From assembly GCA_037446635.1 (NCBI GenBank), contig JBBIIG010000052.1, positions 1 to 29,210 of the forward strand: a stretch of 29,210 bases of DNA. The letters run 5' to 3'. The number at the start of each line of letters is the position of its first letter. The stretch's first letter is position 1. The notes below the pieces were generated by a model. It saw only the letters and a list, made by a program, of their open reading frames with translations. It was not told the origin of the DNA and searched no databases. This DNA comes from a bacterium. GTDB lineage: Bacteria > Zhuqueibacterota > Zhuqueibacteria > Oceanimicrobiales > Oceanimicrobiaceae. Positions 2,301 through 28,610 of the stretch are shown here, piece after piece. Both the position numbers and the translations under genes were made by a program.

Positions 2301-2636
2301 TCAGGCCAGAACCGTCGGCGGGGCGCGGGTGGAAAAGATGGAGAAAATATTTGCAGTAAGACTGGCGACGAGTCTCGGTGAGAAAATCAGCTCGATGAAA
2401 AACGGCGCGAAGCTGTAACGAGCGCACACCGTGCTCACGTTCAGCAGCGAGTAGGTGCATGCCCGGCAATCGAATCGCAGGGTTGGGTTACTCGGATTGG
2501 CGTCTGACCCGGCCTCATTTTCGACGAAGCTCACCGCGCCGCCAAACCCGTGCTGATGCGCCAGCTCGACCGTGCTCGAGAGCGCCAGCAAAATCACCGC
2601 TAACACCTGGGCGGTGACGGTTTTAAACTTTTTCAT
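2301..2636 (-). CDS. DUF2946/CruR-like leader protein 2 (signal-anchor, HxH, CxxC, RAPP), 111 aa
   Basis: ATG at 2636 with GAGGT RBS at 2641-2645; hydrophobic N-terminus, ELAHQH, CRAC, TRAPPTVLA-stop; colinear with 5182..5520. Confidence 0.8.
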   Translation of the reverse strand: MKKFKTVTAQVLAVILLALSSTVELAHQHGFGGAVSFVENEAGSDANPSNPTLRFDCRACTYSLLNVSTVCARYSFAPFFIELIFSPRLVASLTANIFSIFSTRAPPTVLA

Positions 2637-2713
2637 AGCAACCTCTGGTCTTGTCTTTGGCATTTCATTTATGACAAGGTGGATTAATGGATTGTTGCTG
2701 CATAGAGCAAAGT

Positions 2714-2741
2714 AAAAAAGGCGCCATGCGCTCTGCGCCTT
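2714..2741 (-). terminator. Probable intrinsic terminator after the TonB-dependent receptor
   Basis: Minus strand reads AAGGCGC-N10-GCGCCTT-TTTT, starting 3 nt after the TBDT stop codon. Confidence 0.55.
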
Positions 2742-2744
2742 GCC

Positions 2745-5090
2745 TTACGGCGCGAATTGGCCAAACGAGACCTGCATCCGCAAGACGACGTTGCGCCCCG
2801 GGTCGTCGATGAAGTAGCGAAATCGGCTGAGATAGTCGCGGTACGCCGTGTTGAATACATTGTTGACGCTGAGATAGATGAGGATCGGATGTCGTCCCAC
2901 TATGGTTTGCGTTCCCAATTCAAGATCCAGCAATTTGTATCCCGGCGGTGGATCGGTGTAATCGGCGTTGGCGGGCGCGCGATCCTGCCGCCGCACCAAA
3001 GTCGCCGAGATTTCGAAATAGGTATTTTCAAAACTCCCGAACGCCGGCAAATCGAAATGATTGATCCATTGCAGCCGATCGGACGGCATGAAGATCAACG
3101 GTTCATTGGTATCGAGATTGTCTGCTCGCACCGCTGAGGCCCGCGCCCCCAATCGGTAAAAGGCGAACAACTGATAATCGAACGTCAAATCGGCGCCGCG
3201 CAGCACCGCGTTGGCCTGACGATAACTAAACGCCGGAAACGCCCCGCGAATGGTTAAAATCGGCTCCGGCTCCGGGAACAGGAAAATAAAATCGTTGATG
3301 AAGTTGTTGTAAACGCTCAATTCGAGATGACTCTTTTGGCCCAGGTTGCGCAGCGTCGCATCTATGTTATAACTTTTCTCGGAGGTCAAGTTGGGATCGC
3401 CCTTTTCGTATTGCGCGGTGCCGTGGTGCACGCCGTCGCTGAACATTTCATTGACGCTGGGCGGCCGCCATGCCGTGCCGACGTTCACTGCCAGCGACCA
3501 CGCCGGCGCAAATTGATAGATCATCCCCACCACGGCGGAGACATTGTGCCAGTGGTTGATCTGCTCATCATCCGGATTCTGACGGAAGGCATACGCTCGC
3601 TGCCAGCGATAATCGAAGCGGCCGCCAAAGTTGAGGGTGAAATTTTCCTTTGTCCAATTCTCGAGGAGGAAAACGCCGAAGTTGTAGGCGCGAAAATTGG
3701 GAATCAAAAAGCCGCTGGTTTGCCGGAAGTTGCCCTGCCACATTCCGCTGACTCCAAACGTGCCGAAGAAATTTTTCACGGGTCGATGGCGGAATTTGAT
3801 GTCGCCGGAGTGGGTGTAGAGCTTGAGATCGAACGCGGCGTTTTTCGGCGGCTCAGATGAAAACGGAGAATGGGCGTCGAACTCCTGCCGGTGATTGAGT
3901 TGGAAACCGTACTGCGCCTCCAATTTTCCCAGCCCGATAAAATCCGACTGACCTTTGACCGAAATCAAGTCATGGCTGATCTTCTGCTTGGGCGGTTGGA
4001 TATCGTAGGTGAAATCTTTCTCCACCAGCGGCCGTCCGCGCTCGATGGCGTTTTGCAGATCCGTTAAGTTGCCAATATGCGAGCCGCGGAAAATTCCCAA
4101 CTCGGTTCCGAAATGACTGTAATAAAATTCAAGTTCCGATTGCTCGCGATGGTAGCCGGCCGCCAACGACCAGTCCCGCTCTTCAAAACCGGAGTTGTTG
4201 ATGACATAATCGGGCGCGCGCGCATCGCCAGCTTTGCGCAGACTGCCTTGCAGTCTCCAGCTCAAGCGGCTTATCCTCGGCGCGCGCCCTTCCAGAAGCA
4301 GCGACCCGGCGACCTGACGGTTGTTCGAGAAACCGTTGGCAAAAATCTGCCCGCCCAATCCTTGAATTGCCATCAATTGCCGCGGCTCCACGCGCACCAC
4401 CCCGCCGATGGCGTTGGAGCCGTACTCCACGCCGGCCGCGCCTTTCAGCACCTCGATTTTCGCCGGCGCAAAGGGATCGATCTCCGGCGCATGTTCGGCG
4501 CCCCATTGCTGGCCTTCCTGCGGCAGACCGGCATTCAGCACCAACACCCGCTGGCTGTGGAGCCCCCGCACGACTGGCTTAGAGATCGACGGGCCGGTTT
4601 GCAGCACGGTCACGCCGGGGATTTCTTTCAAGGTTTCGCTGAACGTCTGGCCGCGGTGCTTTTCCAGTTTTTCGGCGCTGAGAACCGTAACCGATTGACG
4701 GGAGCGCGTGAGCTCGACTTCCTCCTTGCTGGCGGTTACCGTCACTTCGGAAAATTCGATGACCGTGGGCGTCAAATAAAATTTCTTTTCGAGATTGCCG
4801 GTGATTTCTATGCTTTCCTTCACCTCCGTGTATCCCACAAAGCGACAGACAATGGTGTAGCTTCCTTTCGTCAATCTTTTTAATTGAAATTCACCATTGG
4901 CATCCGCGACATCGCCGCGATTCAGTTCCGCTATATAAATCGTGGCGCCGGGCAGTGGATGGTTGGTGGCGGCGTCGAGCACTTTTCCGGAAACAGCGGC
5001 CAGTTCGCTTTCCGGCGTGGCTGGCAGTCGCGCCGCAAAACTTAAGAGCAATAACAAAATTGTAAGCCGAGGTTTGAATAACCTGGTCAT
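2745..5090 (-). CDS. TonB-dependent outer-membrane receptor, probably for a transition metal
   Basis: Signal peptide; N-terminal carboxypeptidase-regulatory-like domain (SGKVLDAATNHPLPGATI); TonB-box-like EVTVTA; plug motifs (IPGV, KPVVRGL, IEVLKGA..EYGSNAIGGVV); barrel end NNVFNTAYRDYLSR..PGRN; His motifs GAEHAPE, GSHIGN, GVHHGTA. Confidence 0.95.
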   Translation of the reverse strand: MTRLFKPRLTILLLLLSFAARLPATPESELAAVSGKVLDAATNHPLPGATIYIAELNRGDVADANGEFQLKRLTKGSYTIVCRFVGYTEVKESIEITGNLEKKFYLTPTVIEFSEVTVTASKEEVELTRSRQSVTVLSAEKLEKHRGQTFSETLKEIPGVTVLQTGPSISKPVVRGLHSQRVLVLNAGLPQEGQQWGAEHAPEIDPFAPAKIEVLKGAAGVEYGSNAIGGVVRVEPRQLMAIQGLGGQIFANGFSNNRQVAGSLLLEGRAPRISRLSWRLQGSLRKAGDARAPDYVINNSGFEERDWSLAAGYHREQSELEFYYSHFGTELGIFRGSHIGNLTDLQNAIERGRPLVEKDFTYDIQPPKQKISHDLISVKGQSDFIGLGKLEAQYGFQLNHRQEFDAHSPFSSEPPKNAAFDLKLYTHSGDIKFRHRPVKNFFGTFGVSGMWQGNFRQTSGFLIPNFRAYNFGVFLLENWTKENFTLNFGGRFDYRWQRAYAFRQNPDDEQINHWHNVSAVVGMIYQFAPAWSLAVNVGTAWRPPSVNEMFSDGVHHGTAQYEKGDPNLTSEKSYNIDATLRNLGQKSHLELSVYNNFINDFIFLFPEPEPILTIRGAFPAFSYRQANAVLRGADLTFDYQLFAFYRLGARASAVRADNLDTNEPLIFMPSDRLQWINHFDLPAFGSFENTYFEISATLVRRQDRAPANADYTDPPPGYKLLDLELGTQTIVGRHPILIYLSVNNVFNTAYRDYLSRFRYFIDDPGRNVVLRMQVSFGQFAP

Positions 5091-5181
5091 ATTTACCTCG
5101 TTGAGAAAAATGAAAAAATGCTAAGCTAAACCAGCGTCGGTTTGGCCTGGACACAAAGCACTGAAGTTGTTGAGCAGGAAA

Positions 5182-5520
5182 TTAAGCGGGTTGAAGAGGA
5201 GGAGCGCGGTTAGAAACCGATGATTGAATCAGAATGGCAACAGGATTGTGAGTGTGGGATTTAAAAGCACAAGATTCAAAATGGGGAGAGAATAAATCGC
5301 ACTTGATTTCTCCAGATAGGTTGACGGTGGCGACCATGCACGCGAGGCAGACGAAAACGTGGATCGGCCGCTGCGCTGTCTCCGCGGCGTCATGGTTGGC
5401 GCTCACCGCCGCGGAGTCGTCCACCGGCGCGTGGCGATGACTCAGCTCGGCAGCGCCTGCCAGAAAAATCAGCGCGATCAAAATCGCCGTTGCGGTTGGT
5501 TTTCGCCCGTTACTTTTCAC
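5182..5520 (-). CDS. DUF2946/CruR-like leader protein 1 (signal-anchor, HxH, CxxC, RAPP), 112 aa
   Basis: GTG start; hydrophobic N-terminus, ELSHRH, CLAC, NRAPPLQPA-stop; ends 91 nt upstream of the TBDT start. Confidence 0.85.
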   Translation of the reverse strand: MKSNGRKPTATAILIALIFLAGAAELSHRHAPVDDSAAVSANHDAAETAQRPIHVFVCLACMVATVNLSGEIKCDLFSPHFESCAFKSHTHNPVAILIQSSVSNRAPPLQPA

Positions 5521-14740: not shown

Positions 14741-17700
14741 ATGACGAACGACACTTACCAAACTCTCGCTCAAATACTCAGAACGCGAATTATGGTGATC
14801 GACGGCGCGATGGGAACGATGATCCAACGCTACAAATTGACCGAGGACGATTTCCGCGGCGCGCCATTCAAAGATCATCCGCACCCGTTGAAAGGTGACA
14901 ACGATCTGCTGTCGCTGACCCAGCCGGAAATTATCAAAGAAATCCATCGCGAGTATTTGAAGGCCGGCGCCGATATCATCGAGACCAACACCTTCAACGC
15001 CACCGCCATCTCGCAATCCGATTATCATCTCGAAGATAAAATTTATGAGATGAATTTTGCGGCCGCAAAAATTGCAAAAGAAGCCGCGGCGGAATTCACC
15101 GCGAAGAATCCGGATAAACCGCGCTTCGTGGCCGGTGCGTTGGGGCCGACGAACAAAATGCTGTCGCTGTCGCCGGATGTCAACAATCCCAGCTTTCGCG
15201 CCGTTACGTTCGATCAAATGGCGGCGGCCTATCGCGAACAGGCGCGCGGCCTCATCGACGGCGGCGCCGACGTCCTGCTGGTGGAGACCATCTTCGACAC
15301 CCTCAACGCCAAAGCCGCGCTCTTCGCCATTCAGCAGCTTTTTCGTGAAATCGGCCGCACCCTGCCGGTGATGATCTCGGGCACCATCGTCGACGCCAGC
15401 GGCCGCACGTTATCGGGACAAACTCCGGAGGCCTTTTGGGTTTCGGTTTCGCACACCAAAAATCTGCTCAGCGTCGGACTCAACTGCGCCCTCGGCTCGC
15501 AAATGATGCGGCCGTATATCGAAGAAATTTCGCGGGTGGCGAATTGCTTCACGAGTCTCTATCCCAACGCCGGCTTGCCCAACGAATTCGGCGGCTACGA
15601 TGAGACGCCGGAATTCATGGCCGAGCAAATCGCCGATTACGCCCGCAGCGGCTTCGTCAATCTCGTCGGCGGCTGCTGCGGCACCACGCCGGATCACATC
15701 CGCGCCATCGCCGAAGCCGCGGCGCAATTTCCACCGCGGCAGATTCCAGAGATCAAACCCTACTTGCGGTTGAGCGGACTCGAGCCGTTCACGTTGCGAG
15801 CGGACACCAACTTCGTCAACATCGGTGAGCGCACCAACGTTGCGGGCTCTACCAAATTCCGCGATCTCATTCTCGCCGGCGATTTCGAAGCGGCGCTCTC
15901 CGTAGCGCGACAGCAAGTAGAAAACGGCGCGCAGATGATCGATGTCAACATGGACGAAGGCATGCTCGACTCCGAAGCCGCGATGGTGAAGTTTCTGAAT
16001 TTCGCCGGCGTCGAGCCGGAGATCGCGCGCGTGCCGGTGATGATCGATTCCTCCAAATGGTCGGTCATCGAAGCCGGGCTGAAATGCCTGCAGGGCAAAG
16101 GCGTGGTCAACTCGATCAGCTTGAAAGAGGGCGAGGAAATTTTCAAAGAGCACGCCCGCAAAATTTTGGACTACGGCGCGGCGGTGATCGTCATGGCCTT
16201 CGACGAAAAAGGTCAGGCCGACACCTTCGCGCGCAAGATCGAGATCTGCCAACGCGCGTACAAAATTCTCACCGAGGAAGTTGGCTTCCCGCCGCAGGAC
16301 ATCATTTTCGATCCCAACATCCTCACCGTCGCCACCGGCATCGAGGAGCACAACCACTACGCGGTGGATTACATTCGCGCCACGCGGTGGATCAAAGAAA
16401 ATCTGCCGCTGGCGAAAGTGAGCGGCGGCGTCAGCAACATTTCGTTTTCGTTCCGCGGCAATAATCGCGTGCGCGAAGCCATGCACTCGGCGTTTCTCTA
16501 TCACGCCATTCAGGCCGGCATGGACATGGGCATTGTCAACGCCGGGCAAATTGAGGTATATGAAGAAATTCCCAAAGACCTGCTCGAGCTCGTGGAAGAC
16601 GTGCTGCTCAATCGCCGTCCCGACGCCACCGAGCGGCTGGTGGCGTTTGCGGAGAACATCAAGCGCGGCGACAAAGTTGCGGTCGAAGAAGATGCTTGGC
16701 GCAAGACTAGTGTCGAAGAGCGGCTGAAGCACGCGCTGGTGAAAGGCATCGTCGATTTCATCGAAGCGGATACCGAAGAGGCGCGCCAGAAATATCCGAC
16801 TCCGCTGGCGGTCATTGAAGGCCCGCTGATGGACGGCATGAACATCGTCGGCGATCTGTTTGGTTCCGGCAAAATGTTTTTGCCGCAGGTGGTGAAAAGC
16901 GCGCGGGTGATGAAAAAATCCGTGGCGTATCTCGTGCCGTTCATCGAAGCGGAAAAAGCCAAACTGTCAGCGGAGCTGATCCGCTCCGGCGGAAAAGATG
17001 CGCGGCCACGGGCCAAGGTGTTGCTTGCCACCGTCAAAGGGGACGTGCACGACATCGGCAAAAACATCGTCGGCGTGGTGCTGGCGTGCAACAATTTCGA
17101 AGTGATCGATCTCGGGGTGATGGTGCCGTGCGAAAAAATCTTGCAGACCGCAAAAGAGCAGAAGGTGGACATCATCGGCCTGAGCGGACTTATCACGCCG
17201 TCGCTGGATGAGATGGTGCACACCGCCGCGGAGATGGAACGGCTGGGCTTCACGCTGCCGTTGCTCATCGGCGGCGCCACGACGTCGCGGGTGCACACGG
17301 CGGTGAAGATTGCGCCGAATTATCGCGGCCCGACCATCCACGTGCTCGATGCTTCGCGCGGCGTGACGGTGGCAAACAATTTGATCACCGATAATCAGCG
17401 CGAGACGTTTCTCAACGAAGTGCGTGCCGAGTACGAAAAAGTCCGTGACGAACATCAGCGCAAACAGGAGTCGAAAACTCTGCTAACGCTGGCGCAGGCG
17501 CGCGCCAATCGGCTGAAGATTGATTGGCAGAGGTCGGAGATCACGCCTCCGAAAAAGTTGGGTGTCACCGTTCTCAAAAATTATCCCCTCGCGGAGATTC
17601 GCAATTACATCGATTGGACGCCGTTTTTTATCACGTGGGAACTCAAGGGGCGCTACCCGCAAATTTTAGAAGACGAAAAAATCGGCGAAGAAGCGCGCAA

Positions 17701-18448
17701 GCTTTTCCGCGACGCCAACAAACTTTTGGATGACATCATCGCCAAAAAGCTGCTGCGCGCCAACGCCGTGTTCGGACTCTTCCCGGCCAACGCCGTCGGC
17801 GATGACATCGAAGTGTTCTCCGACGATTCCCGCCAAAAAGTGCGGACGATCTTTCACACGCTGCGCCAGCAAACGGAGAAAACCGGCGGCAATCCCAATC
17901 TTGCGCTGGCGGATTTCATCGCGCCGAAAGATTCGGGACGGAATGATTACCTCGGCGCGTTTGCCGTCACCGCTGGCCTCGGCGCGGATGATCTCGTGAA
18001 AAAATTCGAACAGCAGCATGACGATTACAACGCCATCATGGTGAAAGCCCTTGCCGACCGCCTCGCCGAAGCCTTTGCCGAGCTGCTGCACGAGAAAGTC
18101 CGCAAAGAATTCTGGGGCTACGCCGCGGATGAAAATCTCAGCAACGACGATCTCATCAAAGAAAAATATCGCGGCATTCGTCCCGCGCCCGGCTATCCCG
18201 CCTGTCCCGATCACACCGAGAAGCGGCTGCTGTTCGATCTGCTCGCGGTGGAAAAGAACGCCGGCATCACCCTCACCGAAAACTTCGCGATGCTGCCGGC
18301 GGCATCGGTCTCCGGACTTTATTTCGCCCATCCCGAGGCGAAATATTTCACGGTGGGAAAAATCGCAAAAGATCAGGTGGTGGATTACTCTCAGCGCAAA
18401 GGCATGAGTCTGTCTGAGGTGGAGAAGTGGCTGCGGCCGAATACGTGA
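14741..18448 (+). CDS. metH: Cobalamin-dependent methionine synthase
   Basis: [24 protein letters not shown] (Zn/homocysteine domain), NIGERTNV (folate domain), [20 protein letters not shown] (B12 domain), [12 protein letters not shown] (activation domain). Confidence 0.98.
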
Positions 18449-18658: not shown

Positions 18659-18699
18659 GGGGCTGTCCAAAAAGTCGAATTTTAATGTCATTATGAGGA
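18659..18699 (+). mobile_element. Truncated left end of a MITE-like element
   Basis: GGGGCTGTCCAAAAAGTCGAATTTTAATGTCATTATGAGGA, 40/41 identical to 28643-28683; the first 17 bp are the terminal inverted repeat of 26592-26734. Confidence 0.7.
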
Positions 18700-18787: not shown

Positions 18788-19444
18788 ATGCACAAGATGG
18801 ATTCGCAACCGAACCGCAATCTCCCGGAGACCGCTCTCATCGGGCTCAGCGACCACGATGTCGAGTGCTTGCTGGAATTAGCCCAAACCGGAGATTCCGC
18901 TGCCAAAGAACGACTGCTGGGGTGGGCCTATTTCACCGCGCACCGCTACTATCGACTCAAAGTCCCCGCGGAAAAGGCGCTGTCCGCGGAAGATGCCGAG
19001 GAATTGACTACTGCTTTTTTTCTGGAATTTGAGAGTAATCTGCCGCAATTACAATGCGCCACCCGCTATACCCGCTACGTCCTCAAGCAGAATCTGCGGC
19101 GCTATTTGAGGCGCAAAAGAATGCGTCGATGGCGCGCGGGATGGCCTTTGCACAACGTGGAGAAAAGCTCCGCAGCCGCTGTTGCAGATGAGCCCGGGTC
19201 GCCCTGGATGGCCTGGAGCGACGAGGACTTTTTCCAGTACCGCGCGGTGCTGCAAGCCCTCCATGAAACCGATGACACCACGCGGCGGGTCATACAATTT
19301 CGACTGGAAAACCCACCTTTGCCTTACCTGGAAATTGCGGCGCATTTAAACCTGTCGGAGACCGCCATTCGTATGCGCGTAACGCGATTCTACAGTCTGG
19401 TTCGCAAAATCTATGTTACTTTGACCAGAGGTCGTTCCCTATAA
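18788..19444 (+). CDS. ECF-type RNA polymerase sigma factor (divergent)
   Basis: Region 2-like LLELAQTGDSAAKERL..AEDAEELTTAFFL..NLRRYLRRKR; region 4 HTH YLEIAAHLNLSETAIRMRVTR. Start may be 18797. Confidence 0.85.
   Translation: MHKMDSQPNRNLPETALIGLSDHDVECLLELAQTGDSAAKERLLGWAYFTAHRYYRLKVPAEKALSAEDAEELTTAFFLEFESNLPQLQCATRYTRYVLKQNLRRYLRRKRMRRWRAGWPLHNVEKSSAAAVADEPGSPWMAWSDEDFFQYRAVLQALHETDDTTRRVIQFRLENPPLPYLEIAAHLNLSETAIRMRVTRFYSLVRKIYVTLTRGRSL
19414..19443 (+). promoter_or_regulatory. Putative ECF promoter, copy A (TGTTAC-N17-CCCTATA)
   Basis: Both boxes and the spacing are identical at 24304 and 24390; overlaps the sigma stop codon and ends 41 nt before the next ATG. Confidence 0.7.
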
Positions 19445-19484
19445 CAAGTAGGAACGCCGGATTGATGAATGGAGAAGACGGCCA

Positions 19485-20279
19485 ATGAAAAAACAGACAC
19501 TCGATTCCCGCACAATTGAGCGGATGCTGCGGCTGGCCCATACTCCGCCGGACGACGCACTTTTGCGGCGCTATTTCAACGCGTGCGCCGGAAAAGATGA
19601 CGGCTCCGCGCTGACGGATGCAGAACGGCGCTGGCTGACGGTGAATCTGGATGCAAATCCCAATTGGCAGCAAAAGTGGAAAGAACTGGAAAAGGAAATC
19701 GGCCATTCGGTGGATTGGCGGCGGCAGGCGCGGTTTCCGCAGGCTGCGGTCAAGTCTGAGCCGGTGGTCAAACCCCGCTTCTTTGAGGAATGGCTGCCGC
19801 GGGTTCAGCCGCAGTGGGCCTTCCGGCTGGCCTTCGCTGCCGTGGTGTTGGCGGCTTTGTATGGAACCCTGTGGCTGGTGGGGAGATGGGGTCTTCCGAA
19901 AACCTATGAACTGGCATCCGTGGCGAGCCATGAAGAATTTTTGAATGTTCGCGTGCGCGGAGAGTCGGTTGCAGCCGAAGCCGAGTTTGCCGCCGGCGCA
20001 GAGGCACTGCTCAGCGCACCGAAAGATTGGCTTGGACTGTTTCCCCACTACGATCGCCAAAAGGTGGACGTGGCCATCGTCCTTTTGACGCGGGCGTTTG
20101 AAGCCACGGACGATCCATTTCAACGCGCCGAGATCGCGTTTTTTCTCGCCAAAGCATATTTGATGAAAGATGAAATCACCGGCGTTAAACGCTGGCTGAA
20201 CGAAGCGCTGGCTCAAAATGTGGCGGATTATCGGAGAGAGGCAACTGAGCTGCTGAAAAAATTAGCGGAGAAAAATTGA
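19485..20279 (+). CDS. Putative membrane-anchored anti-sigma factor with C-terminal TPR-like helices
   Basis: Directly follows the ECF gene; N-terminal LLRRYF..LTDAERRWLTVNLDANPNW resembles an anti-sigma domain without Zn ligands; one TM helix (LAFAAVVLAALYGTLWLV); TPR-like AFFLAKAYL..WLNEAL..EATELLKKL. Confidence 0.7.
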   Translation: MKKQTLDSRTIERMLRLAHTPPDDALLRRYFNACAGKDDGSALTDAERRWLTVNLDANPNWQQKWKELEKEIGHSVDWRRQARFPQAAVKSEPVVKPRFFEEWLPRVQPQWAFRLAFAAVVLAALYGTLWLVGRWGLPKTYELASVASHEEFLNVRVRGESVAAEAEFAAGAEALLSAPKDWLGLFPHYDRQKVDVAIVLLTRAFEATDDPFQRAEIAFFLAKAYLMKDEITGVKRWLNEALAQNVADYRREATELLKKLAEKN

Positions 20280-20303
20280 ATAATTAAATCTGCTCGCTCA
20301 ACG

Positions 20304-20597
20304 TCACATATCTGAAGTTACTCTGAATTTGTCGGAAGTTAAGTGCATCCTTACCCCTAAGGCGTAGCAAACTTTCAAGAAAGCCTTGATATTGAAATTC
20401 GATCCCTTTTCAATCTTCGAAAGTTGTTGTTGTGTTATTTGCGCTTTGCTGGCGAGTTGGGATTGGGTTAAGCCTGCTTTCTTTCTCTCTTCAAAGATTC
20501 TATTTGATAATTGAAGTAATTGGATCTCTTCTTCATACATTTCTTTGAATTCTTTGTCCTTGAGCTTTTCCTCTAAATGTTCATTGAGTGTCTTCAT
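20304..20597 (-). CDS. XRE-family HTH protein, HigA-like antitoxin
   Basis: LEEKLKDKEFKEMYEE N-terminus and ERKKAGLTQSQLASKAQITQQQLSKIEKG HTH; AT-rich relative to neighbours. Confidence 0.85.
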   Translation of the reverse strand: MKTLNEHLEEKLKDKEFKEMYEEEIQLLQLSNRIFEERKKAGLTQSQLASKAQITQQQLSKIEKGSNFNIKAFLKVCYALGVRMHLTSDKFRVTSDM

Positions 20598-20677
20598 CGG
20601 CGATACCCCTTTGAATATCTTTCGAGAAAATCATCACGATATTTTATTGCTCTTTTTATTTCTGATTTCGGAATCTT
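20594..20677 (-). pseudogene. 3' remnant of a RelE/HigB (Gp49-like) toxin gene
   Basis: Reads KIPKSEIKRAIKYRDDFLERYSKGYRR-stop, typical of a Gp49/HigB C-terminus; its stop overlaps the antitoxin start (ATGA); only 11 nt separate it from the CHAT stop codon. Confidence 0.7.
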
Positions 20678-20688
20678 GAACTCAAGAA

Positions 20689-23600
20689 TCACTTTCCTAT
20701 CAACACAAACGGCGCCCAGAAATACGGCCGCGCGTATTTCGGATTCGACGCCATCAGATGCAACTTGGCGGCTCGCAGGGCATCCCTTTTGGACGCGCCA
20801 TTTAGCATCTCGTCATAAAAAGCGGTCATCAACTCCGCGGTGCTGACGTCGTTCACCTGCCAGAGCGACACCAGCAGGCTGGCCGCGCCGGCGTAGAGAA
20901 AGCCGCGGGTTAATCCCAACAAACCCTCGCCGCGCGCCATCTTTCCCAGCGCGGTCTTGCACGCGCTCAATACCACCAGATCGGCGTTCAATTTTAAATT
21001 GTAAATTTCTCCCAGATACAGCACCCCATCTTCCGATGATGTAGGCTCCGACGCGAGAAGCAGGCCGGAGAGTTTCGGCCGCGTCTCGTTGATGAGGCCG
21101 TGGGTGGCAAAATGCACAAACCGATAGACATCGAGCGGTTCAGCTTTCAGCCGACGCTCATCGGCCTGTTTCCCGGAAAGCACCCGCGTGTTATTGCCAA
21201 ACCAACGTCTGAAAAATCCCGCGCGCTGGCGGAACAATTCCTCGACTTGTGAAACCTCCTCTCGGGTTGCCGGCAAATAGGCGCTCCGCAGGCTCAGGGT
21301 GGAATCCACATTCCGGTTCGACTGGATGAAATCCGAGCCGCGAATGCTGCTTGCTTCGCCTTCAGAAAAGATAGGAGCCAACGCCAGGTAGTCGCGGGGC
21401 GCCGACTGGCGCGAACGGCCAAGGGTTTCCAACAACAACGTCGCGGAATAGGCATAGCTCACCGTGCGCTCTTTGAGCAGAAATGGCAGAGCGCGATAGT
21501 CTTTCCTGCCGGTGTCAGGTCGCACTTCCCGGGTGAGCAGCGCTTCGAAAGGCACGAAGCACAGCGGGCCGTCCGGAACAATGATGAGATGCGACGCGCT
21601 GAGTTTCCTAACAATGGGCTGGATGAGAGTCTGGTAAAGTGAGAATGCCGTACGGCAGAAGGGTTCATATTCCTGTGCCAACACACTCTCTCGCAACTGC
21701 TCGACCTTCTGCTGAAACGAGGAATCGATGCCCACCGCAACGAAATCAAGTTCATTGCGGCTTACCACAGCGATGAAGATGGAATCCGCTCCCACGAAGT
21801 ATTCCACCAGCGCAGTGCGGTCGTCGAGGAGTTTTTCCCGGACCTCGTCCACCGACGCGAGGTTGATGCGGTATTTGAGGTTGTAATAATCTGGATAGCT
21901 CGCCTCAAAATTATCGAGCAGCGATTCATAGGCCCGCTGCAAATCAAACAGCTTGCTTTGCCAGGCGATTAATTTTGAGCTGTCGGCTGCCGCGCCCTTG
22001 ATTTCTTCTTCGCCGGCGAGGCGATCGTAGTAAGCCAGGTCGCCGCGCAGGTGCTGTTCTTTTTCTAGCAAGGAATCCGCAATGCCCGCGAAATGCTTGG
22101 CCTCGGCTTCAGCCAGGGCGTCCAGCAGCACGCCGGCTTTGCTTTTCTCCATATATTGGAAAATCTGCAGTTTGTACACCGGATCGTTGGTGATATGGTA
22201 CAATTTCATCGCTGTTCGGATCGCCAGGTTATAGATTTCCACGGCATTTTCGGCCAGGAACAACTTGGCGCCTTCGGCTTTGTAGCCGTGCCGGAGTTGA
22301 TCGACGAGCTGGAGGGCCCGCTTACCGGCGGAGTTAGCAGCATGTAGATCAGGAGCGGGCCGCGCAGACCGCGCCGCCTTTTCTAACAGCGCGGTGGTTT
22401 TTCGCTGCAGCGTTTGCAGCAACTGGGTTTCGGAGAGCACTCGTTCGTCAGTTGGATTTTTCGTCGGATCAGGGTTGGAGAATCCGGGCGCATTGGCCGC
22501 GAGGGCGCGCTGATAGTTAACGAGGGCGAGATCGTACTGGCGCTGCCGGGTGTGTACGTCACCTATCAAGTCATAACACAACGCAAGTTCGGGATGGTGC
22601 TTTCCGTAAACGGATTGAAAGACCGCCAGGGCTTTTTGGTAAGATTCAAGCGCCTTTCGGTAATCGGCTTTTTTTGCATAATCCGATCCCAGGTTGCCAT
22701 AGCCGCGCGCCACCATAACGTGCGTTTCGCCCAATGAGGGCAAAATCATATCCAGCGCCTGGTTATGGTAGTCGATGGCGCGGGAAACCTGGCCCATCTC
22801 GAAATAGACATTGCCGAGGTTCATGTAGGTGCTGGCGACACGCCAATGGCGCTCTCCGAATTCTTGCTTCAGAAGAGCGATTGATTTTTCATAAAGCGTC
22901 ACGGCCGCTGCGTAATCTTTTTTGGCAAAGTTGACCAGGGCGAGATTGTGATGGACATTGGCCAATGGCAAAGGACCCACCTCTGCCGGCGGCAGCGCCT
23001 GCCAGATGGCCAGCGCCTTTAAGTAGTATTCGCGGGCGAGGTCGAATTCGCGTTTAAAAATATAAAGATTGCCAAAATAAAAAAAGATATCCCCGGCTCG
23101 CCAATCTTTGAGTTCGGGCTCCGCCTGCTTCCAGATAGTCAGTGCGGCCTCGAGATGCGGCAGGGCGAGGTCATATTGCCCTTTCTCCATGTAAGTGCCG
23201 GCAAACCGTATTTGACAATCCATCTTTTGGTGGGTCGGCGCGCCGGGAAGCGCCTGCAAAATCTCAAATTCTTTTTCAAAATACGCCAGGGCTTGCTCGA
23301 GCGCACTCTTGCTAATTTGAATGCGGCCCAGCTTTTCATAAATCAGGGCGATCAACTCATGATGTTCGCCGAAGCGACTGCGTGTTGTATCCAGCAGCGC
23401 GGTGAGTCGTTCCTCGCTGTCCTGCACGTTCAATTTGCCGAGGCTCATTCGTTTCATGGCCAATTCCACGGCGGTGCGCACGTACCCCTCCCAGTCCTGC
23501 GCTTGCCGATACACCTGGCTGGCCTGTTCGTAGTAGGCGAAGCTGCTGTCGTGTTGAAGGGTTTTAGCGAAGTGTTCGGCGCGGGCAACGAGCTGCTCGG

Positions 23601-23769
23601 CAGGGGACTCCTTTTTTCCGGAAACGCCTTCTTCCGCGCCGCGCACCTGCAGGGAATCGATAGTGGAAGACTGTTGTTCCGACTGCTTTTCCTGCGAACA
23701 AGCAAAAAGCAGGATAGCGGCCAGGGTAATCGCTCCCGGCCGGGATTTTTGACTTCCCCGGGCAAACAT
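20689..23769 (-). CDS. Lipoprotein TPR-CHAT (caspase-like, clan CD) protease
   Basis: Lipobox LFA-C24; many TPR repeats; CHAT motifs LIIVPDGPLCFVPFEAL, VHFATHG (catalytic His), LVVLSACKTALG (catalytic Cys), GEGLLGLTRGF..SLWQVND, PYFWAPFVLIG. Confidence 0.92.
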   Translation of the reverse strand: MFARGSQKSRPGAITLAAILLFACSQEKQSEQQSSTIDSLQVRGAEEGVSGKKESPAEQLVARAEHFAKTLQHDSSFAYYEQASQVYRQAQDWEGYVRTAVELAMKRMSLGKLNVQDSEERLTALLDTTRSRFGEHHELIALIYEKLGRIQISKSALEQALAYFEKEFEILQALPGAPTHQKMDCQIRFAGTYMEKGQYDLALPHLEAALTIWKQAEPELKDWRAGDIFFYFGNLYIFKREFDLAREYYLKALAIWQALPPAEVGPLPLANVHHNLALVNFAKKDYAAAVTLYEKSIALLKQEFGERHWRVASTYMNLGNVYFEMGQVSRAIDYHNQALDMILPSLGETHVMVARGYGNLGSDYAKKADYRKALESYQKALAVFQSVYGKHHPELALCYDLIGDVHTRQRQYDLALVNYQRALAANAPGFSNPDPTKNPTDERVLSETQLLQTLQRKTTALLEKAARSARPAPDLHAANSAGKRALQLVDQLRHGYKAEGAKLFLAENAVEIYNLAIRTAMKLYHITNDPVYKLQIFQYMEKSKAGVLLDALAEAEAKHFAGIADSLLEKEQHLRGDLAYYDRLAGEEEIKGAAADSSKLIAWQSKLFDLQRAYESLLDNFEASYPDYYNLKYRINLASVDEVREKLLDDRTALVEYFVGADSIFIAVVSRNELDFVAVGIDSSFQQKVEQLRESVLAQEYEPFCRTAFSLYQTLIQPIVRKLSASHLIIVPDGPLCFVPFEALLTREVRPDTGRKDYRALPFLLKERTVSYAYSATLLLETLGRSRQSAPRDYLALAPIFSEGEASSIRGSDFIQSNRNVDSTLSLRSAYLPATREEVSQVEELFRQRAGFFRRWFGNNTRVLSGKQADERRLKAEPLDVYRFVHFATHGLINETRPKLSGLLLASEPTSSEDGVLYLGEIYNLKLNADLVVLSACKTALGKMARGEGLLGLTRGFLYAGAASLLVSLWQVNDVSTAELMTAFYDEMLNGASKRDALRAAKLHLMASNPKYARPYFWAPFVLIGK

Positions 23770-23822
23770 TTCATCTAAGAGGTTTGATGACTACCGTCAT
23801 TTTTTAGTCAGGGCCAGTGTTG

Positions 23823-23890
23823 TCATTCAGGAGGAAACTTTTTTGATAACAGGATTTAGCTGAAACTCTGAAAGGATTCCCCCTGAATGA
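23823..23890. repeat. Imperfect inverted repeat upstream of the CHAT gene (TGTCATTC family)
   Basis: TCATTCAGGAGGAAACTTT ... AAAGGATTCCCCCTGAATGA. Confidence 0.55.
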
Positions 23891-24076
23891 TCTCAGCGGC
23901 AATAATGTAAAACGTTCTGATCCAACAAGCAAATTTTTTTATGGGTGACTTCCATGAACAGCGGTGCTGGCTTAACTTAAAGCCAAAGACGGACGGAAGC
24001 CACCTTTAGTATTACCAATGAACGTTTGCATTTTTTTGCAAAGAATTGACACTCTAAAAATTGCCAGGCATCAAGC

Positions 24077-24144
24077 TGGAGTAATGGAGTTTTGGAGTAC
24101 TGGAACTAACTGCCATTGATCCATTACTCCATTACTCCATTACC
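24077..24144. repeat. Inverted pair of octamer tandem arrays
   Basis: TGGAGTAA TGGAGTTT TGGAGTAC TGGAAC followed by CCATTGAT CCATTACT CCATTACT CCATTACC. Confidence 0.65.
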
Positions 24145-24303
24145 CCGCTTCGATTGGCACGCCCTCCTTTAGTTAAGACGTGTTTGATTAGTTATCACTG
24201 CGGCTTTGCCGCGCTGGGAGCTGCAGAATTGATTCCGCAGCGGCTGGGCTGTTTTTAAGGCGCTCAACCTAAGGGAGTGATAATCAATTTTTTAAAAAAA
24301 ATC

Positions 24304-24333
24304 TGTTACATCGCCCAATGATCCTGCCCTATA
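24304..24333 (+). promoter_or_regulatory. Putative ECF promoter, copy B (TGTTAC-N17-CCCTATA)
   Basis: AAAATC-TGTTAC-atcgcccaatgatcctg-CCCTATA. Confidence 0.7.
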
Positions 24334-24389
24334 TAGACAAATCCCAAACACAAAAAAATAAACCTAAAAACGGATGGGCAGAAAAATCT

Positions 24390-24419
24390 TGTTACATCAA
24401 GACGGTTATGTTCCCTATA
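24390..24419 (+). promoter_or_regulatory. Putative ECF promoter, copy C (TGTTAC-N17-CCCTATA)
   Basis: AAAATCT-TGTTAC-atcaagacggttatgtt-CCCTATA, ending 98 nt before ATG 24518. Confidence 0.7.
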
Positions 24420-24436
24420 CCAACCAGGGGCTTTAC

Positions 24437-24480
24437 GTGCGACGCGCTTCGCCAGTGCGTCACACATTTCGGACAGCCCC
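24437..24480. repeat. REP-like hairpin followed by a MITE right-end fragment
   Basis: GTGCGACGCGCT-TCGCC-AGTGCGTCACAC (24437-24465), then GGACAGCCCC (24471-24480) matching 26725-26734. Confidence 0.5.
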
Positions 24481-24517
24481 TTGAAAACTGGACGACATAA
24501 CTAAGGAGGTAACCGCT

Positions 24518-25081
24518 ATGAACCGATTCGTTACTGTTTTCGCCGCTGCCGCGCTCTTGCTGAGCCTGGCGGCTGCCGATGCTCGCGCGCAAACCTGGCA
24601 AATGCTCGCCAGCTTTCCCGGCCGCCCGGCCAGCGCATTTGTCTTCGCGGCCGGCAGCGTGCGTTTCAGCGTAAAAGACCGTCTGGACTTCGACGGCGAC
24701 GGCGTGGCAGAGATCGCAATGATTGCGGTCGTCGATCCGACCAACCCCAATGTCGTCTATCTTAAAATTCACAGCGGCGCCGATCCCAATCAGCAATGGC
24801 AAATTCCCCTGCCCAATGGTATCATTGCCATTCTTATCGGCTTTCTTGACTTCGATGGCAACAATGCCAAAGACATTCTCTTGGCGCACAAAGTGGGGCG
24901 GCAGTTTGTCAACCCCATGGTCCTCTATAACATTGATGTGAACTCTGGCACGTATGAAGTTGGCATTCCTGATGGCAGCACCGTGCTGATAGGTGGCTGG
25001 GACCTCGACAATGACGGCTATTACGAACTCGTCGTCGGCAGTCCGGACAAAAAAGAAGTGCAAATCTGGGGCTTCAAATAA
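24518..25081 (+). CDS. Secreted FG-GAP/VCBS-like (DxDxDG) repeat protein
   Basis: TAAGGAGG RBS; signal peptide ending ARA; DFDGDG..EI, DFDGNN..DI, DLDNDG..EL motifs. Confidence 0.85.
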   Translation: MNRFVTVFAAAALLLSLAAADARAQTWQMLASFPGRPASAFVFAAGSVRFSVKDRLDFDGDGVAEIAMIAVVDPTNPNVVYLKIHSGADPNQQWQIPLPNGIIAILIGFLDFDGNNAKDILLAHKVGRQFVNPMVLYNIDVNSGTYEVGIPDGSTVLIGGWDLDNDGYYELVVGSPDKKEVQIWGFK

Positions 25082-25093
25082 TCGGAGGACACC

Positions 25094-26578
25094 ATGAAAC
25101 GAATCACGCTTGCGATCGCGGTCATTCTTCTGTGTTCTGCTTCTGCCTGGGCGCAGATCGGCAGACTCTGGGAATCCTTTGAAGGCGCAAAATTCCGGCC
25201 GCCGCGGCCCAACAAGTTCATTCTCGAAATTGCCGGATTCCAAACCCCGACCGATGACGATCGACCCGCCATCATCGCCATCCTGATCGGTTTGCAAAAT
25301 CAGGGGGCAGCAGGGCAAGCACCGGCCTTGGCCCCAGCCGAGCCTGCTGCGGCACATCAAGTAGAGGACAGGATCGTGGTCTATGACGTTGCGGATAGCA
25401 GCGAAATCTGGTCCCTGCCATTGTCAACTTTGACCGGCGGGCAGCCAGCCGACAGCATTTCTATCAATACGGTCGGCTTTGTGCGTTTTCGCGGCACCGG
25501 GTCGACGCAGGCCACTTCACAAATGTCCTTCAGCAAGCATGCCATCGTCAGCTATGAGTGGGATTTTAATTATGACGGGATTTATGATCCCATGGAGCGT
25601 TTTCTATCCATCGTCGATCCAAACACCAATGAAGTGGTGTTTATGGAGCAGGGAGCGCTGCCGCTGGGGGTGTGGCAACGGCCGGATGGCCGGGTGGTTT
25701 TGCTTGAAGTTCTGGTAGCGGCAAAAAGAATCGCCGTCATTGGCGAGACCGGCGGTAGTGGTGGCTCCTTGGGTTCAACCGCGCCTCCGGCTTCTGCCGC
25801 AGCGCAACAAACGGCTGGCGCCTACCAGCTCGCGCTGAAATTTCAGGCTGAACCCGAATTGCGGCTGGCCTATGATCCGGAGCTTTTCGATCCTCCCGGC
25901 GACAATGATCTGAATGGCGACGGACGCTCCGACATTGCCATGCTGGTGGAAGACGCCAACGATGAGCCGCAAGGGGTGATTGTACGAGACGGACAAAGCT
26001 TCGATATCCTCTGGCAGTTCCCATTTCCCGATGAGCACAAAGAGAACATTCGCAAAGGATTTCACGGCTTTGTGGATGCCAATGGCGACGGCGAAAAGGA
26101 AGCAATTGTCGGCAACAATCTGGCAGTGACCCTCGATGGTACGGTGCACACCATCGCCGAGGATTTTCAGATTGTCGATGTCAACGATCTCGACAACGAC
26201 GGCTTTGAAGATATCATCGGCCTGAGCACGGTAGACAGCTCGGTGGTGGTGTACGGAATCCTGAAGCCGACTTCGGTGTCGGACTACGATCCATCGGAAA
26301 TACATTTCCGCCTGTTCCAGAACTATCCCAATCCCTTCAATCCCTCGACCGTGATCACCTATTCGGTGGCGCAGTCGGGCGAGGTGACGCTGAGGATTTT
26401 CAACACCCTCGGCCAGGTAGTGCGCACGCTGGTCAATGAGCGCAAACCCGCGGGCGAATACAGCCTCACCTGGGACGGCCGCGATGACGCCGGCCAGTTG
26501 CTGAGCAGCGGACCGTACTTCTATCGCCTGAAAGTAGGCGAGGCGGTCGAGACCCGGCGCATGCTGTTCTTGAAATAA
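25094..26578 (+). CDS. Secreted FG-GAP/VCBS-like repeat protein with FlgD-Ig/T9SS-like C-terminal domain
   Basis: GGAGG RBS; signal peptide ending AWA; DLNGDG, DANGDG, DLDNDG; QNYPNPFNPST..WDGRDDAG. Confidence 0.88.
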   Translation: MKRITLAIAVILLCSASAWAQIGRLWESFEGAKFRPPRPNKFILEIAGFQTPTDDDRPAIIAILIGLQNQGAAGQAPALAPAEPAAAHQVEDRIVVYDVADSSEIWSLPLSTLTGGQPADSISINTVGFVRFRGTGSTQATSQMSFSKHAIVSYEWDFNYDGIYDPMERFLSIVDPNTNEVVFMEQGALPLGVWQRPDGRVVLLEVLVAAKRIAVIGETGGSGGSLGSTAPPASAAAQQTAGAYQLALKFQAEPELRLAYDPELFDPPGDNDLNGDGRSDIAMLVEDANDEPQGVIVRDGQSFDILWQFPFPDEHKENIRKGFHGFVDANGDGEKEAIVGNNLAVTLDGTVHTIAEDFQIVDVNDLDNDGFEDIIGLSTVDSSVVVYGILKPTSVSDYDPSEIHFRLFQNYPNPFNPSTVITYSVAQSGEVTLRIFNTLGQVVRTLVNERKPAGEYSLTWDGRDDAGQLLSSGPYFYRLKVGEAVETRRMLFLK

Positions 26579-26591
26579 CTTTGTGGAGTAC

Positions 26592-26734
26592 CGGGCTGCC
26601 CAAAAAGTGTAAAAGTAACTGTCATTCTGAGGCGGTTTTTGCCGAAGAATCCCCTAATTTGAGCACCGTCCAGGAGATTCTTCCCCCGACACTTCGGGGT
26701 CAGAATGACATTCGCGTACTTTTTGGACAGCCCC
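26592..26734. mobile_element. MITE-like element (143 bp) with a nested REP-like palindrome
   Basis: Terminal inverted repeats CGGGCTGCCCAAAAAGT / ACTTTTTGGACAGCCCC (15/17); inner 11-bp inverted repeat TGTCATTCTGA (26620) / TCAGAATGACA (ending 26710); no transposase. Confidence 0.75.
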
Positions 26735-26795: not shown

Positions 26796-28610
26796 ATGAA
26801 GAACAGATTTTCTTCTCTCGCGCTGGCGGCGTTGCTGCTCGCCAGCCTGGGGTCCCCTGCGCTTTTCGCGCAGTTTTATGAAATCAAACATGAAATCATA
26901 AATGCCTACGGCTGGTTTGGCGGCGACAACCGGCCCATGCAGCAGCGCACGGCCGGCGTCGGGCAAAGCGTCTTGATCGATACCACGATGACGGTCAGGA
27001 GCTTCGCCTTTTATTTCAGAGGGCCGTTTGATTATGCCTTCAATCCCGAGGGCAGGGGGCACGCGGTCACCTTGACGCTGAACGTGCGGGATGCGAGCGG
27101 TATCATTCTAAAAACAGTGCAAGCGGTCGTGCCCGATAGCTTTTCCGCCGGTTGGATCACCTGGCAAGGCATCAATCTGCTGGCCGCCGCCAATACGACG
27201 CTCATCTTCACCTGCTATCAAGTCGGCGCGTACGATTCTGCTCAATACACCGCGAGCCACGGCGCCGATGCCAGCCAGAGCTATACGAATGGCGTTCGCT
27301 ATGGCAAAGATGGTACGAGCGATGCGGACATGGAAAGCTGGACCGACTGGGTGGTGCACCCGAGCTGGGATTCGGCCTTCCGGCTGGAAGGAACCTTAGG
27401 CCCAGCATCCAACAAGAATTGCGATAAAACTTCCATCGGGCAGGTGCCGCTGAACGACTTGGGCACGGGGACTTATCAAGGCTATCAGGGTGGGCTTTAT
27501 CCCGGCGGCAGCAACGGCCTGCCCATTGCGCACAAAGCTGCCGGGCTTGCTGCCGCGGCGCAGGTCAGGCCGTTGGACCAATCAGGCAACGTGGATTTGA
27601 CCAACGGCAAGATCGCGCTCATTTCGATTGGGCCATCCTTCGCCACCATGGAATTTTCCGCCTTTCAATTTCTTGCCGGCCAGGATGTGTCCATTAACCC
27701 CAAACTCGTGCTTGTCGATGGCGCGCAAAGCGGCCAGTCCGCGGAACAATTTGCCGATACCTCCGACAATGTCTGGAACGTGATCGCTCAGCGTTTGAGC
27801 AATGCCAATGTGACGTCGAAACAGGTTCAGGTAGCCTGGGTCAAGTCCGTGAACGCGGTGCATACTGCGGGGTTTCCCGCTGACCAGACCAAACTAACCG
27901 GCGACCTGGCGACCATCTCCAGAAATCTCAAGGCAAAATTCCCTAACATCAAACTCGCCTATTTTTCCAGCCGGTCATACGGCGGTTATGGAGGGAGCGA
28001 GCCTTATCCGTATGAAACCGGCTTCGCGGTGAAATGGCTGATCGAGAACCAAATCACCGGCGACACCACGCTGGCCTTTGGTGGCGCCAACCCCAAAGCG
28101 CCGTGGCTGGTGTGGGGACCGTATTTCTGGGCCGATGGCACCACGCCCCGGCAGGACAGCCTGGTTTGGGAGTGCAGCGATTTTCAAGACGACGGCACGC
28201 ACCCTTCGCTGTTCGGACGCGCGAAAGTTGCAAGACTGTTGTTGACCTTCTTCAAAACGGATTCCACGACCAGCTTATGGTTTCTCCGAAATCCACCGAC
28301 GTCGGTTGAAGCGAATCGCCACGATTCTCCACGGGCTTTCGCCCTGGAACAGAATTATCCCAATCCCTTTAATCCAGCGACGACGATTCGCTATGTTCTT
28401 GAGCGTGACGATGAAGTACGGCTGGTGATTTATAATGCGCTGGGAAAAACCGTGCGCACACTGGTGCACGGTCATCAACCCGCTGGTGAACATACCGTCG
28501 TTTGGGATGGAAGAAACGATCTCGGTCAACCGGTGGCGAGCGGCAGTTATTTCTACCAGCTAAAAGTTGGAAATACTTTTTCCACCAAACGAATGTTAGT
28601 TCTGCATTAG
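26796..28610 (+). CDS. Secreted multidomain protein: N-terminal domain of unknown function, SGNH/GDSL-like hydrolase domain, FlgD-Ig/T9SS-like C-terminal domain
   Basis: AGGAG RBS before ATG 26796; signal peptide; ISIGPSF (Ser), DGAQSG, DGTHP (DxxH); QNYPNPFNPAT. Confidence 0.8.
   Translation: MKNRFSSLALAALLLASLGSPALFAQFYEIKHEIINAYGWFGGDNRPMQQRTAGVGQSVLIDTTMTVRSFAFYFRGPFDYAFNPEGRGHAVTLTLNVRDASGIILKTVQAVVPDSFSAGWITWQGINLLAAANTTLIFTCYQVGAYDSAQYTASHGADASQSYTNGVRYGKDGTSDADMESWTDWVVHPSWDSAFRLEGTLGPASNKNCDKTSIGQVPLNDLGTGTYQGYQGGLYPGGSNGLPIAHKAAGLAAAAQVRPLDQSGNVDLTNGKIALISIGPSFATMEFSAFQFLAGQDVSINPKLVLVDGAQSGQSAEQFADTSDNVWNVIAQRLSNANVTSKQVQVAWVKSVNAVHTAGFPADQTKLTGDLATISRNLKAKFPNIKLAYFSSRSYGGYGGSEPYPYETGFAVKWLIENQITGDTTLAFGGANPKAPWLVWGPYFWADGTTPRQDSLVWECSDFQDDGTHPSLFGRAKVARLLLTFFKTDSTTSLWFLRNPPTSVEANRHDSPRAFALEQNYPNPFNPATTIRYVLERDDEVRLVIYNALGKTVRTLVHGHQPAGEHTVVWDGRNDLGQPVASGSYFYQLKVGNTFSTKRMLVLH

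Follow-up and report, generated by a model that had tools for sequence, protein, structure and literature searches.

What could link a caspase-like protease held outside the cytoplasm to a sigma factor within it? The question arises at contig JBBIIG010000052.1 of assembly GCA_037446635.1 (Oceanimicrobiaceae, Zhuqueibacterota), a 29,210-nucleotide stretch that we call the window and that forms the entire contig C52 of genome G000 (4.64 Mb, 97% complete); G, L and C numbers denote genomes, loci and contigs throughout. An initial annotation had placed there a sigma factor of the extracytoplasmic function (ECF) type, a single-pass membrane protein with tetratricopeptide repeats (TPR), a lipoprotein TPR-CHAT protease and two divergent FG-GAP genes, and all of these gene positions were confirmed. 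The locus is a real conserved module, a split and exported variant of the DdvA/DdvS kind with a divergent sigma factor and a motif of its own.

The sigma factor, its membrane partner and the exported protease

The first gene of the trio (18788..19444, plus strand) encodes a divergent ECF-type sigma factor of 218 amino acids. The protein scores below the Pfam and TIGR02937 cut-offs (TIGR02937 E 3e-8), and its assignment draws on that match together with HHalign and its homologs: alignment to 19 ECFs of G000 gave 98.2% over 173 columns spanning sigma2 and sigma4, with a maximum of 1.8% in 10 column shuffles, 15 homologs share 48-58% identity with it, and its Atlas neighbours are sigma-70 clusters. 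As in other ECFs, sigma2 and sigma4 are its only domains, in about 200 residues. PDB sequence searches with the queries labelled A1 and A2 gave, respectively, only Lrp-like helix-turn-helix (HTH) and chance matches, and no match.

The second gene (19485..20279, plus strand) encodes the predicted anti-sigma, a single-pass protein of 264 amino acids with a predicted layout of four N-terminal helices, a transmembrane (TM) segment at 115-133, two short helices, a loop at 155-161 and a TPR fold at 160-264. An excess of Lys and Arg before relative to after the TM segment in 36 of 41 homologs places the N-terminus inside, in support of the topology first predicted for this protein. The sigma gene lies upstream of the partner in 17/17 loci that carry this sigma family, so that the partner, with one TM segment, an inward N-terminus and a gene directly after that of the sigma, has the arrangement of a class I anti-sigma. 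Its N-terminal domain lacks a CHCC zinc motif, and HHalign against 29 zinc anti-sigma domains gave only 7%, a weak signal beside shuffles of up to 1.7%; fold searches on the partner covered the TPR part. Because this direct profile homology is weak, modularity is the main argument for the domain: zf-HC2 or DUF4880-like anti-sigma domains fill the same N-terminal slot in many relatives, and we therefore read the N-domain in the window as an anti-sigma domain that very probably sequesters the sigma factor.

The third gene (20689..23769, minus strand) encodes the predicted lipoprotein TPR-CHAT protease, 1,026 amino acids long (Pfam CHAT E 4e-68). The intact His/Cys dyad reported at the outset was confirmed, His890 and Cys937 being invariant in 120/120 homologs. 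The protein carries the lipobox LFAC at residues 21-24, with Cys24 present in 92 of 120 rows (21 have gaps), and a rough screen of 105 full-length homologs found 61 with a lipobox-like N-terminus, 32 with a hydrophobic N-terminus without a lipobox, and 12 with neither. Judged by these N-termini, export is the rule among these CHAT homologs, which supports the extracytoplasmic location proposed initially, and the 32 hydrophobic N-termini without a lipobox suggest the periplasm rather than the cell surface. A model of the protease domain (pLDDT 86) matches Csx29, DdvA and separase; the fold and a His-Gly/Cys dyad behind TPRs are those of a clan CD TPR-CHAT protein, with proteolytic activity as a prediction. 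Searches of PDB sequences returned 0 matches for the single CHAT domain and 8ROT as the best match for a CHAT profile (E 6e-6). Close homologs numbering 423 among 8,000 scored make up the exported TPR-CHAT set.

Three further residues of the protease, Glu838, Trp970 and Asp974, are invariant. Clan CD proteases carry their S1 determinants on helix 1 and loop L5, and these are acidic in MALT1 (PMC4357240), while Asp2070 of human separase binds the P1 Arg (PMC10317155). Glu838 and Asp974, mapped to these determinants by spacing and with no superposition, are accordingly candidate S1 residues, acidic as in Arg-specific members of the clan; the Asp at position 974 is kept in DdvA and absent from Csx29.

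The partner offers a candidate Arg at the edge of its periplasmic TPR domain, in the modelled loop. Arg158 is invariant in 41/41 close homologs among variable neighbours (positions 154-157 and 160-166), and it is kept in 92 of 113 distant representatives, with Gly or Ser next in 67 of those 92. By eye, Arg-Gly/Ser follows the TM segment in 6/7 other CHAT-adjacent anti-sigmas, one of which has an ectodomain that does not look like TPRs. Among the ECF-adjacent membrane proteins of G000, R[GS] stands at the matching place in 2/3 with a CHAT gene and 0/10 without, against a background of 16/87. We consider it reasonably likely that CHAT is the site-1 protease of this system and Arg158 the candidate P1 residue, which makes Arg158-Gly159 the predicted scissile bond. 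CHAT could instead bind and shield the anti-sigma in the manner of RseB/MucB, with Arg158 serving as a grip or pseudo-substrate while the site-1 cut falls to another protease. An Arg in the S1 pocket, or a chain across it, can indeed inhibit, as in the gingipain prodomain and securin (PMC4357240, PMC10317155), and DdvA dyad mutants still repress DdvS (PMC11506125), but a pure shield would not need the His and Cys that all 120 homologs retain, and the residue at P1' is small in 67/92; we regard such shielding as unlikely.

Several further features of the CHAT proteins were observed. An insert at residues 846-859 (window 21190-21235), predicted to be an amphipathic helix and GFF..WFG-like, is conserved across this CHAT subfamily, and the four remaining CHATs of G000 lack it; it could serve for docking, either to the membrane or to the partner. 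The CHAT gene appears as two frames in G055:C9:101048-104123 and L047:2777-5353 (a frameshift or an assembly error). The four further CHAT genes of G000 lie at C25:40549-46843, C49:17209-25278, C3:94214-97291 and C80:4998-8300; those on C25 and C49 come after a sigma gene and a gene for a zinc-finger/TPR membrane protein, the alignment suggests that those on C49 and C80 are catalytically altered, and the anti-sigmas of C49 and C84 share RPSGG in place of RG.

Conservation and modularity of the trio

We examined 67 loci (the window, G055 and 65 others, some of them near-duplicates). A close homolog of the anti-sigma, defined by a profile score above 140, is present in 22 of the 67, and 14 of these 22 have a convergent CHAT gene. 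The neighbourhood analysis thereby bore out the initial expectation that the triad is co-conserved: of the 17 loci with this sigma family, 10 have a convergent TPR-CHAT, 4 end fewer than 200 bases from the anti-sigma, and 3 (L010, L014 and L049) have no CHAT within 2-10 kb. A CHAT ortholog of 44-46% identity is encoded elsewhere in the genome for L010, L013, L014 and L017, which makes 4/4 of the close-family genomes tested that have no adjacent CHAT, and G167 holds a further complete trio. Among the distant loci a CHAT gene is nearby in only 4/45, always in tandem. Of 145 genomes sampled from the phylum, 6 match the anti-sigma strongly (E <1e-40) and 35 encode a similar CHAT: the trio has a scattered distribution there, and the protease family extends further than this anti-sigma family.

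The initial annotation had the sigma factor and the TPR protein converging on CHAT, and the genes are convergent as described, but they do not abut. An XRE/HTH_3 antitoxin-like gene (20304..20597, minus strand; Pfam HTH_3 E 2.5e-11) and a short frame whose translation marks it as a probable C-terminal toxin remnant (20594..20690, minus strand), presumably of the HigB/RelE type, lie between the convergent ends. This slot holds other small genes or is empty in relatives, and because its content varies the XRE gene was rejected as a component of the module.

The close homologs are assigned to candidate division KSB1 by their sources, and records from KSB1, Rhodothermales and Bacteroidota supplied the related loci. 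The same periplasmic domain, again with a convergent CHAT, is combined in G010, L016 and G014 with unrelated sigmas and N-domains, and we therefore read the periplasmic part as the partner of CHAT. P0271, a 600-amino-acid protein from ENA, joins a different N-domain to a TM segment, this periplasmic domain and a Peptidase_C14 domain (E 2e-21), which makes it a DdvA-like fusion with another protease family. On C19 (50700-52141), G000 itself encodes another sigma/anti-sigma pair, whose periplasmic domain is the same (43%) and which has no CHAT beside it; an assembly gap breaks a gene there, the anti-sigma has Arg-Ser at the matching place, and the counterpart of the pair in G010 does have CHAT beside it. 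The C19 anti-sigma is a possible second substrate of the C52 CHAT.

A promoter-like motif and its predicted outputs

The motif GTTAC-N18-CCTATA, usually preceded by an A-tract, occurs three times in the window, always on the plus strand, and nowhere else in the 4.64-Mb genome. The initial annotation was right to place one copy ahead of the anti-sigma gene and two ahead of the FG-GAP genes, with the correction that the first (19415..19443) lies inside the 3' end of the sigma coding sequence. The second (24305..24333) points away from CHAT toward the secreted genes, and the third (24391..24419) lies 98 nucleotides ahead of the first FG-GAP start. By count the motif is not over-represented, shuffles having given 4-7 copies of a looser core pattern, and the evidence for it is therefore its position and conservation. 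A scoring matrix trained on 14 sites from other genomes ranks the three window copies first in the genome (37.7 for the second, 32.6 for the third and 23.8), followed by housekeeping-like sites at 23.1 and 21.8. The strict motif occurs 14 times in 229 kb of close loci versus 0 in 592 kb of distant loci (18 versus 3 for a relaxed pattern), and it precedes the anti-sigma in 12 of the 17 loci with this sigma, 7 of these 12 having belonged to the training set of the matrix. Where the motif overlaps the sigma gene it is retained in two different frames, and in one locus it lies outside coding sequence.

The motif also tracks the sigma across genomes. The Rhodothermales chromosome G061 has 11 copies versus 2 control matches, 8 of the 11 with a clear co-oriented gene within 300 nucleotides, and one copy lies beside a CHAT gene about 138 kb from the sigma. 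Genes behind the motif in G061 include those for the anti-sigma, an FG-GAP/fn3 secreted protein, a Wzz-domain protein and a GlgC-like protein, and others that we take, by resemblance, to be LptB-, MBOAT- and oxidoreductase-like. These eleven copies (G061:C1; L151, L159, L164, L166 and L168-L174) represent a dispersed predicted regulon of secreted, polysaccharide and envelope genes. In L012 the motif points into a LanB/LanC/ABC cluster, and at L148:4569-13289 (G079:C8, Rhodothermales) a class I lanthipeptide cluster with LanB halves, LanC and an ABC exporter stands directly behind the motif, divergent from CHAT. The motif was not found in G010, G012 or G014, where CHAT goes with other sigmas, and five genomes without this sigma gave 1 match in total. 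A scan for the sigma-70 consensus found 6 sites versus 6.4 expected, none of them at the motif. A reversed reading, in which the promoter would drive CHAT, was rejected because transcription would then proceed antisense into the sigma gene and because 8 of the 11 G061 sites fit the forward reading.

On this distribution, the motif is very probably the promoter of this sigma factor. The adjacent regulon first proposed thus stands insofar as a sigma-linked promoter-like motif lies near secreted genes; the dispersed copies in G061 mean that the regulon need not be solely adjacent. CHAT might itself be one of the outputs or a gene that travels with the pair, acting in the periplasm as a protease to mature or destroy cargo or invader proteins while a general envelope protease opens the sigma/anti-sigma pair. 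The motif at the CHAT 5' end points outward in 9 loci, against only L011 in which it points into the CHAT gene, and CHAT follows the periplasmic domain through sigma swaps and has a counterpart in the caspase fusion P0271. Even allowing for the far wider spread of CHAT homologs than of this anti-sigma family, and for a convergent orientation that provides no operon link, we find this account improbable. It is highly improbable that the motif is a variant of a housekeeping sigma-70 promoter or the operator of another regulator, with the trio linked by shared mobility only, since it departs in both boxes, and by one extra base in the spacer, from the TTGCA/TTGA-N17-TATATT promoters that the next-best genome matches resemble, and since it is absent from the distant loci and nearly absent from the five sigma-less genomes, patchy though the trio is in the phylum.

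Four co-oriented secreted genes lie beyond the CHAT start, two of them additional to the FG-GAP pair, and at least two have a C-terminal sorting domain of the type IX secretion system (T9SS). The predicted first target (24518..25081, plus strand; Pfam FG-GAP) is a secreted FG-GAP-repeat protein of 187 amino acids with an ortholog (61%) in the same slot in G167. It is followed by a predicted target of 494 amino acids (25094..26578, plus strand), a secreted FG-GAP protein with a T9SS-type sorting domain and orthologs in G167 (79%) and L009 (37%). Possible further targets are a secreted sorting-domain protein (26796..28610, plus strand), with homologs at 78-83% downstream of CHAT in G055 and G173, and a BNR/Ycf48-repeat secreted protein cut by the contig end (28769..29210, plus strand), with same-slot homologs in L047, G167 and G055. 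The outputs predicted from these sequences vary, from secreted sorting-domain proteins here to the lanthipeptide cluster of L012 and the envelope and polysaccharide genes of G061, and they suggest an envelope, surface or competition response. PADLOC, run on 10 window proteins up to the contig end at 29210, returned only generic HTH and TPR matches and nothing indicating phage defence.

Elsewhere in the window, a dispersed REP-like (repetitive extragenic palindromic) element starting GGGCTG[TC]CCAAAAAGT occurs at 18660, 26593, 26733 and 28644; it has 18 copies in the genome, with an inverted pair at 26593/26733 and two copies at contig ends. Short GGAGTAAT/ATTACTCC repeats make up inverted arms at 24077-24146, in the intergenic region between CHAT and the cargo genes. 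Directly upstream of the sigma gene lies what we take to be the B12-dependent methionine synthase MetH (14741-18448), which is not kept beside the sigma loci of relatives. At 2301-5520 and 242-1982, a TonB-dependent receptor stands between two small His-containing membrane open reading frames ending in RAPP and adjoins a lipoprotein and a MetA-pathway-type barrel; together these are presumably a metal-uptake unit.

The proposed switch and its relation to known systems

We think it somewhat probable that the conserved trio works as a protease-gated sigma switch, a split counterpart of DdvA/DdvS. The membrane partner would hold the ECF sigma in the cytoplasm until the TPR arm of the CHAT lipoprotein senses a periplasmic cue; CHAT would then cut the partner after Arg158 in the periplasm, removing the TPR cap, and RseP, which G000 encodes on C34, would cut the TM segment as it does for truncated DdvA. 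The freed sigma would transcribe the genes behind GTTAC-N18-CCTATA, both the secreted cargo and, from the internal promoter, extra anti-sigma that would reset the switch.

Several observations weigh against this proposal. Similar CHATs occur in 35 of the 145 phylum genomes and the full anti-sigma family in only about 6, and the relatives are not independent samples. The N-domain resembles zinc anti-sigma domains at only 7%, and the P0271 fusion is a singleton that lacks the Arg-Gly. Most of the 45 distant loci retain Arg158, although a CHAT is nearby in only 4 of them, and an Arg kept where no CHAT adjoins may have a structural role; 22 of the 25 tested genomes of distant loci do hold a more distant CHAT. 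The lowest-scoring window copy of the motif (23.8) is barely above the housekeeping-like sites (23.1 and 21.8), 5/17 loci with this sigma have no motif before the anti-sigma, the cargo genes of G167 have no copy, G063 has this sigma and no strict match, and G064, with another sigma type, has 4 matches, 3 of them within open reading frames. In DdvA, cleavage by CHAT is itself still a hypothesis, and the dyad mutants showed no phenotype (PMC11506125).

DdvA of Myxococcus xanthus is a transmembrane anti-sigma with a periplasmic TPR-CHAT (PMC11506125; PDB 8ROT, 8RW5), with homologs reported in Myxococcota and one Comamonas (PMC11506125). Both systems have an ECF sigma, a single-pass partner with a TM segment, linker and TPR scaffold, and a periplasmic TPR-CHAT with a His/Cys dyad, and for both a cut in the linker followed by RseP is proposed. 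Here, however, CHAT is a separate lipoprotein encoded convergently on the opposite strand, the CHCC zinc site is missing, the predicted outputs are secreted proteins rather than CBASS/CRISPR, and the hosts are KSB1 and Rhodothermales rather than Myxococcota; the window thus lacks the single chain of zinc anti-sigma domain, TM segment and TPR-CHAT, and the control of a CBASS/CRISPR island, that define the DdvA type.

The initial annotation had compared the locus with Craspase, in which the TPR-CHAT Csx29 cuts the anti-sigma-like Csx30 linked to CASP-sigma, as is predicted for CHAT and its partner here. The comparison holds for the fold, Csx29 structures being the top matches to the CHAT model (E 2e-11, TM score about 0.56), but DdvA/DdvS is the closer system: Craspase is cytoplasmic and RNA-activated through Cas7-11, and Csx29 cuts after Met/Leu and lacks the Asp at position 974. 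No CRISPR gene (Cas7-11, Csx30 and Csx31 mark type III-E) was recognised in the window, and this CHAT, with its lipobox, is not of the cytoplasmic kind. ECF54 sigmas of Actinobacteria also have conserved neighbouring CHAT/TPR genes (PMC7826278 supplement); in the available part of that source no anti-sigma is proposed for them, their neighbours include subtilase and carboxypeptidase-regulatory genes, their promoter is GTATCAG/CTCC and their phylum is another, so that motif, neighbours and hosts all differ from those here. The Arg-specific clan CD protease separase shares the fold (E 6e-8) and an Asp that follows the catalytic Cys, at Cys+41 in the human enzyme, where it binds the P1 Arg, and at Cys+37 here, but is eukaryotic and intracellular, and its ExxR is only partly present here (Glu/Gln is common at 156, not at 155). 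Other work has noted ECFs beside EACC2-caspase genes (PMC8195603), described SAVED-CHAT/PCaspase (10.1101/2023.06.23.546230) and shown an Arg-specific bacterial caspase-like protease in type IV Thoeris (10.1101/2024.10.24.620036). A literature search, with most subscription papers outside its coverage, found no description of a split exported CHAT/anti-sigma/ECF unit; given the DdvA/DdvS and ECF54 precedents, we see the locus as a split variant of a described system and not as a new principle.

A broader reading, which we put forward tentatively, is that of a portable periplasmic caspase-signalling module, in which an Arg-specific TPR-CHAT that is exported and a TPR ectodomain tagged with Arg-Gly would together act as a universal input plug; in KSB1, Rhodothermota and Bacteroidota this plug would have been grafted onto unrelated sigmas and anti-sigma domains. 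If so, one protease would fire several sigmas per cell (C52 and the CHAT-less C19 pair), and CHAT would represent a novel class of site-1 proteases that drives the production of secreted proteins and lanthipeptides as well as envelope polysaccharide genes. For work in vivo it is a limitation that the organism is probably uncultured. The available part of the DdvA paper leaves open whether periplasmic CHAT is a site-1 protease; with enzyme and substrate here as separate proteins, and with a predicted scissile bond, S1 residues and promoter, the proposal is testable with purified proteins and a reporter. If true, the switch would provide the large set of exported TPR-CHAT proteins with a function and would define an unclassified ECF group.

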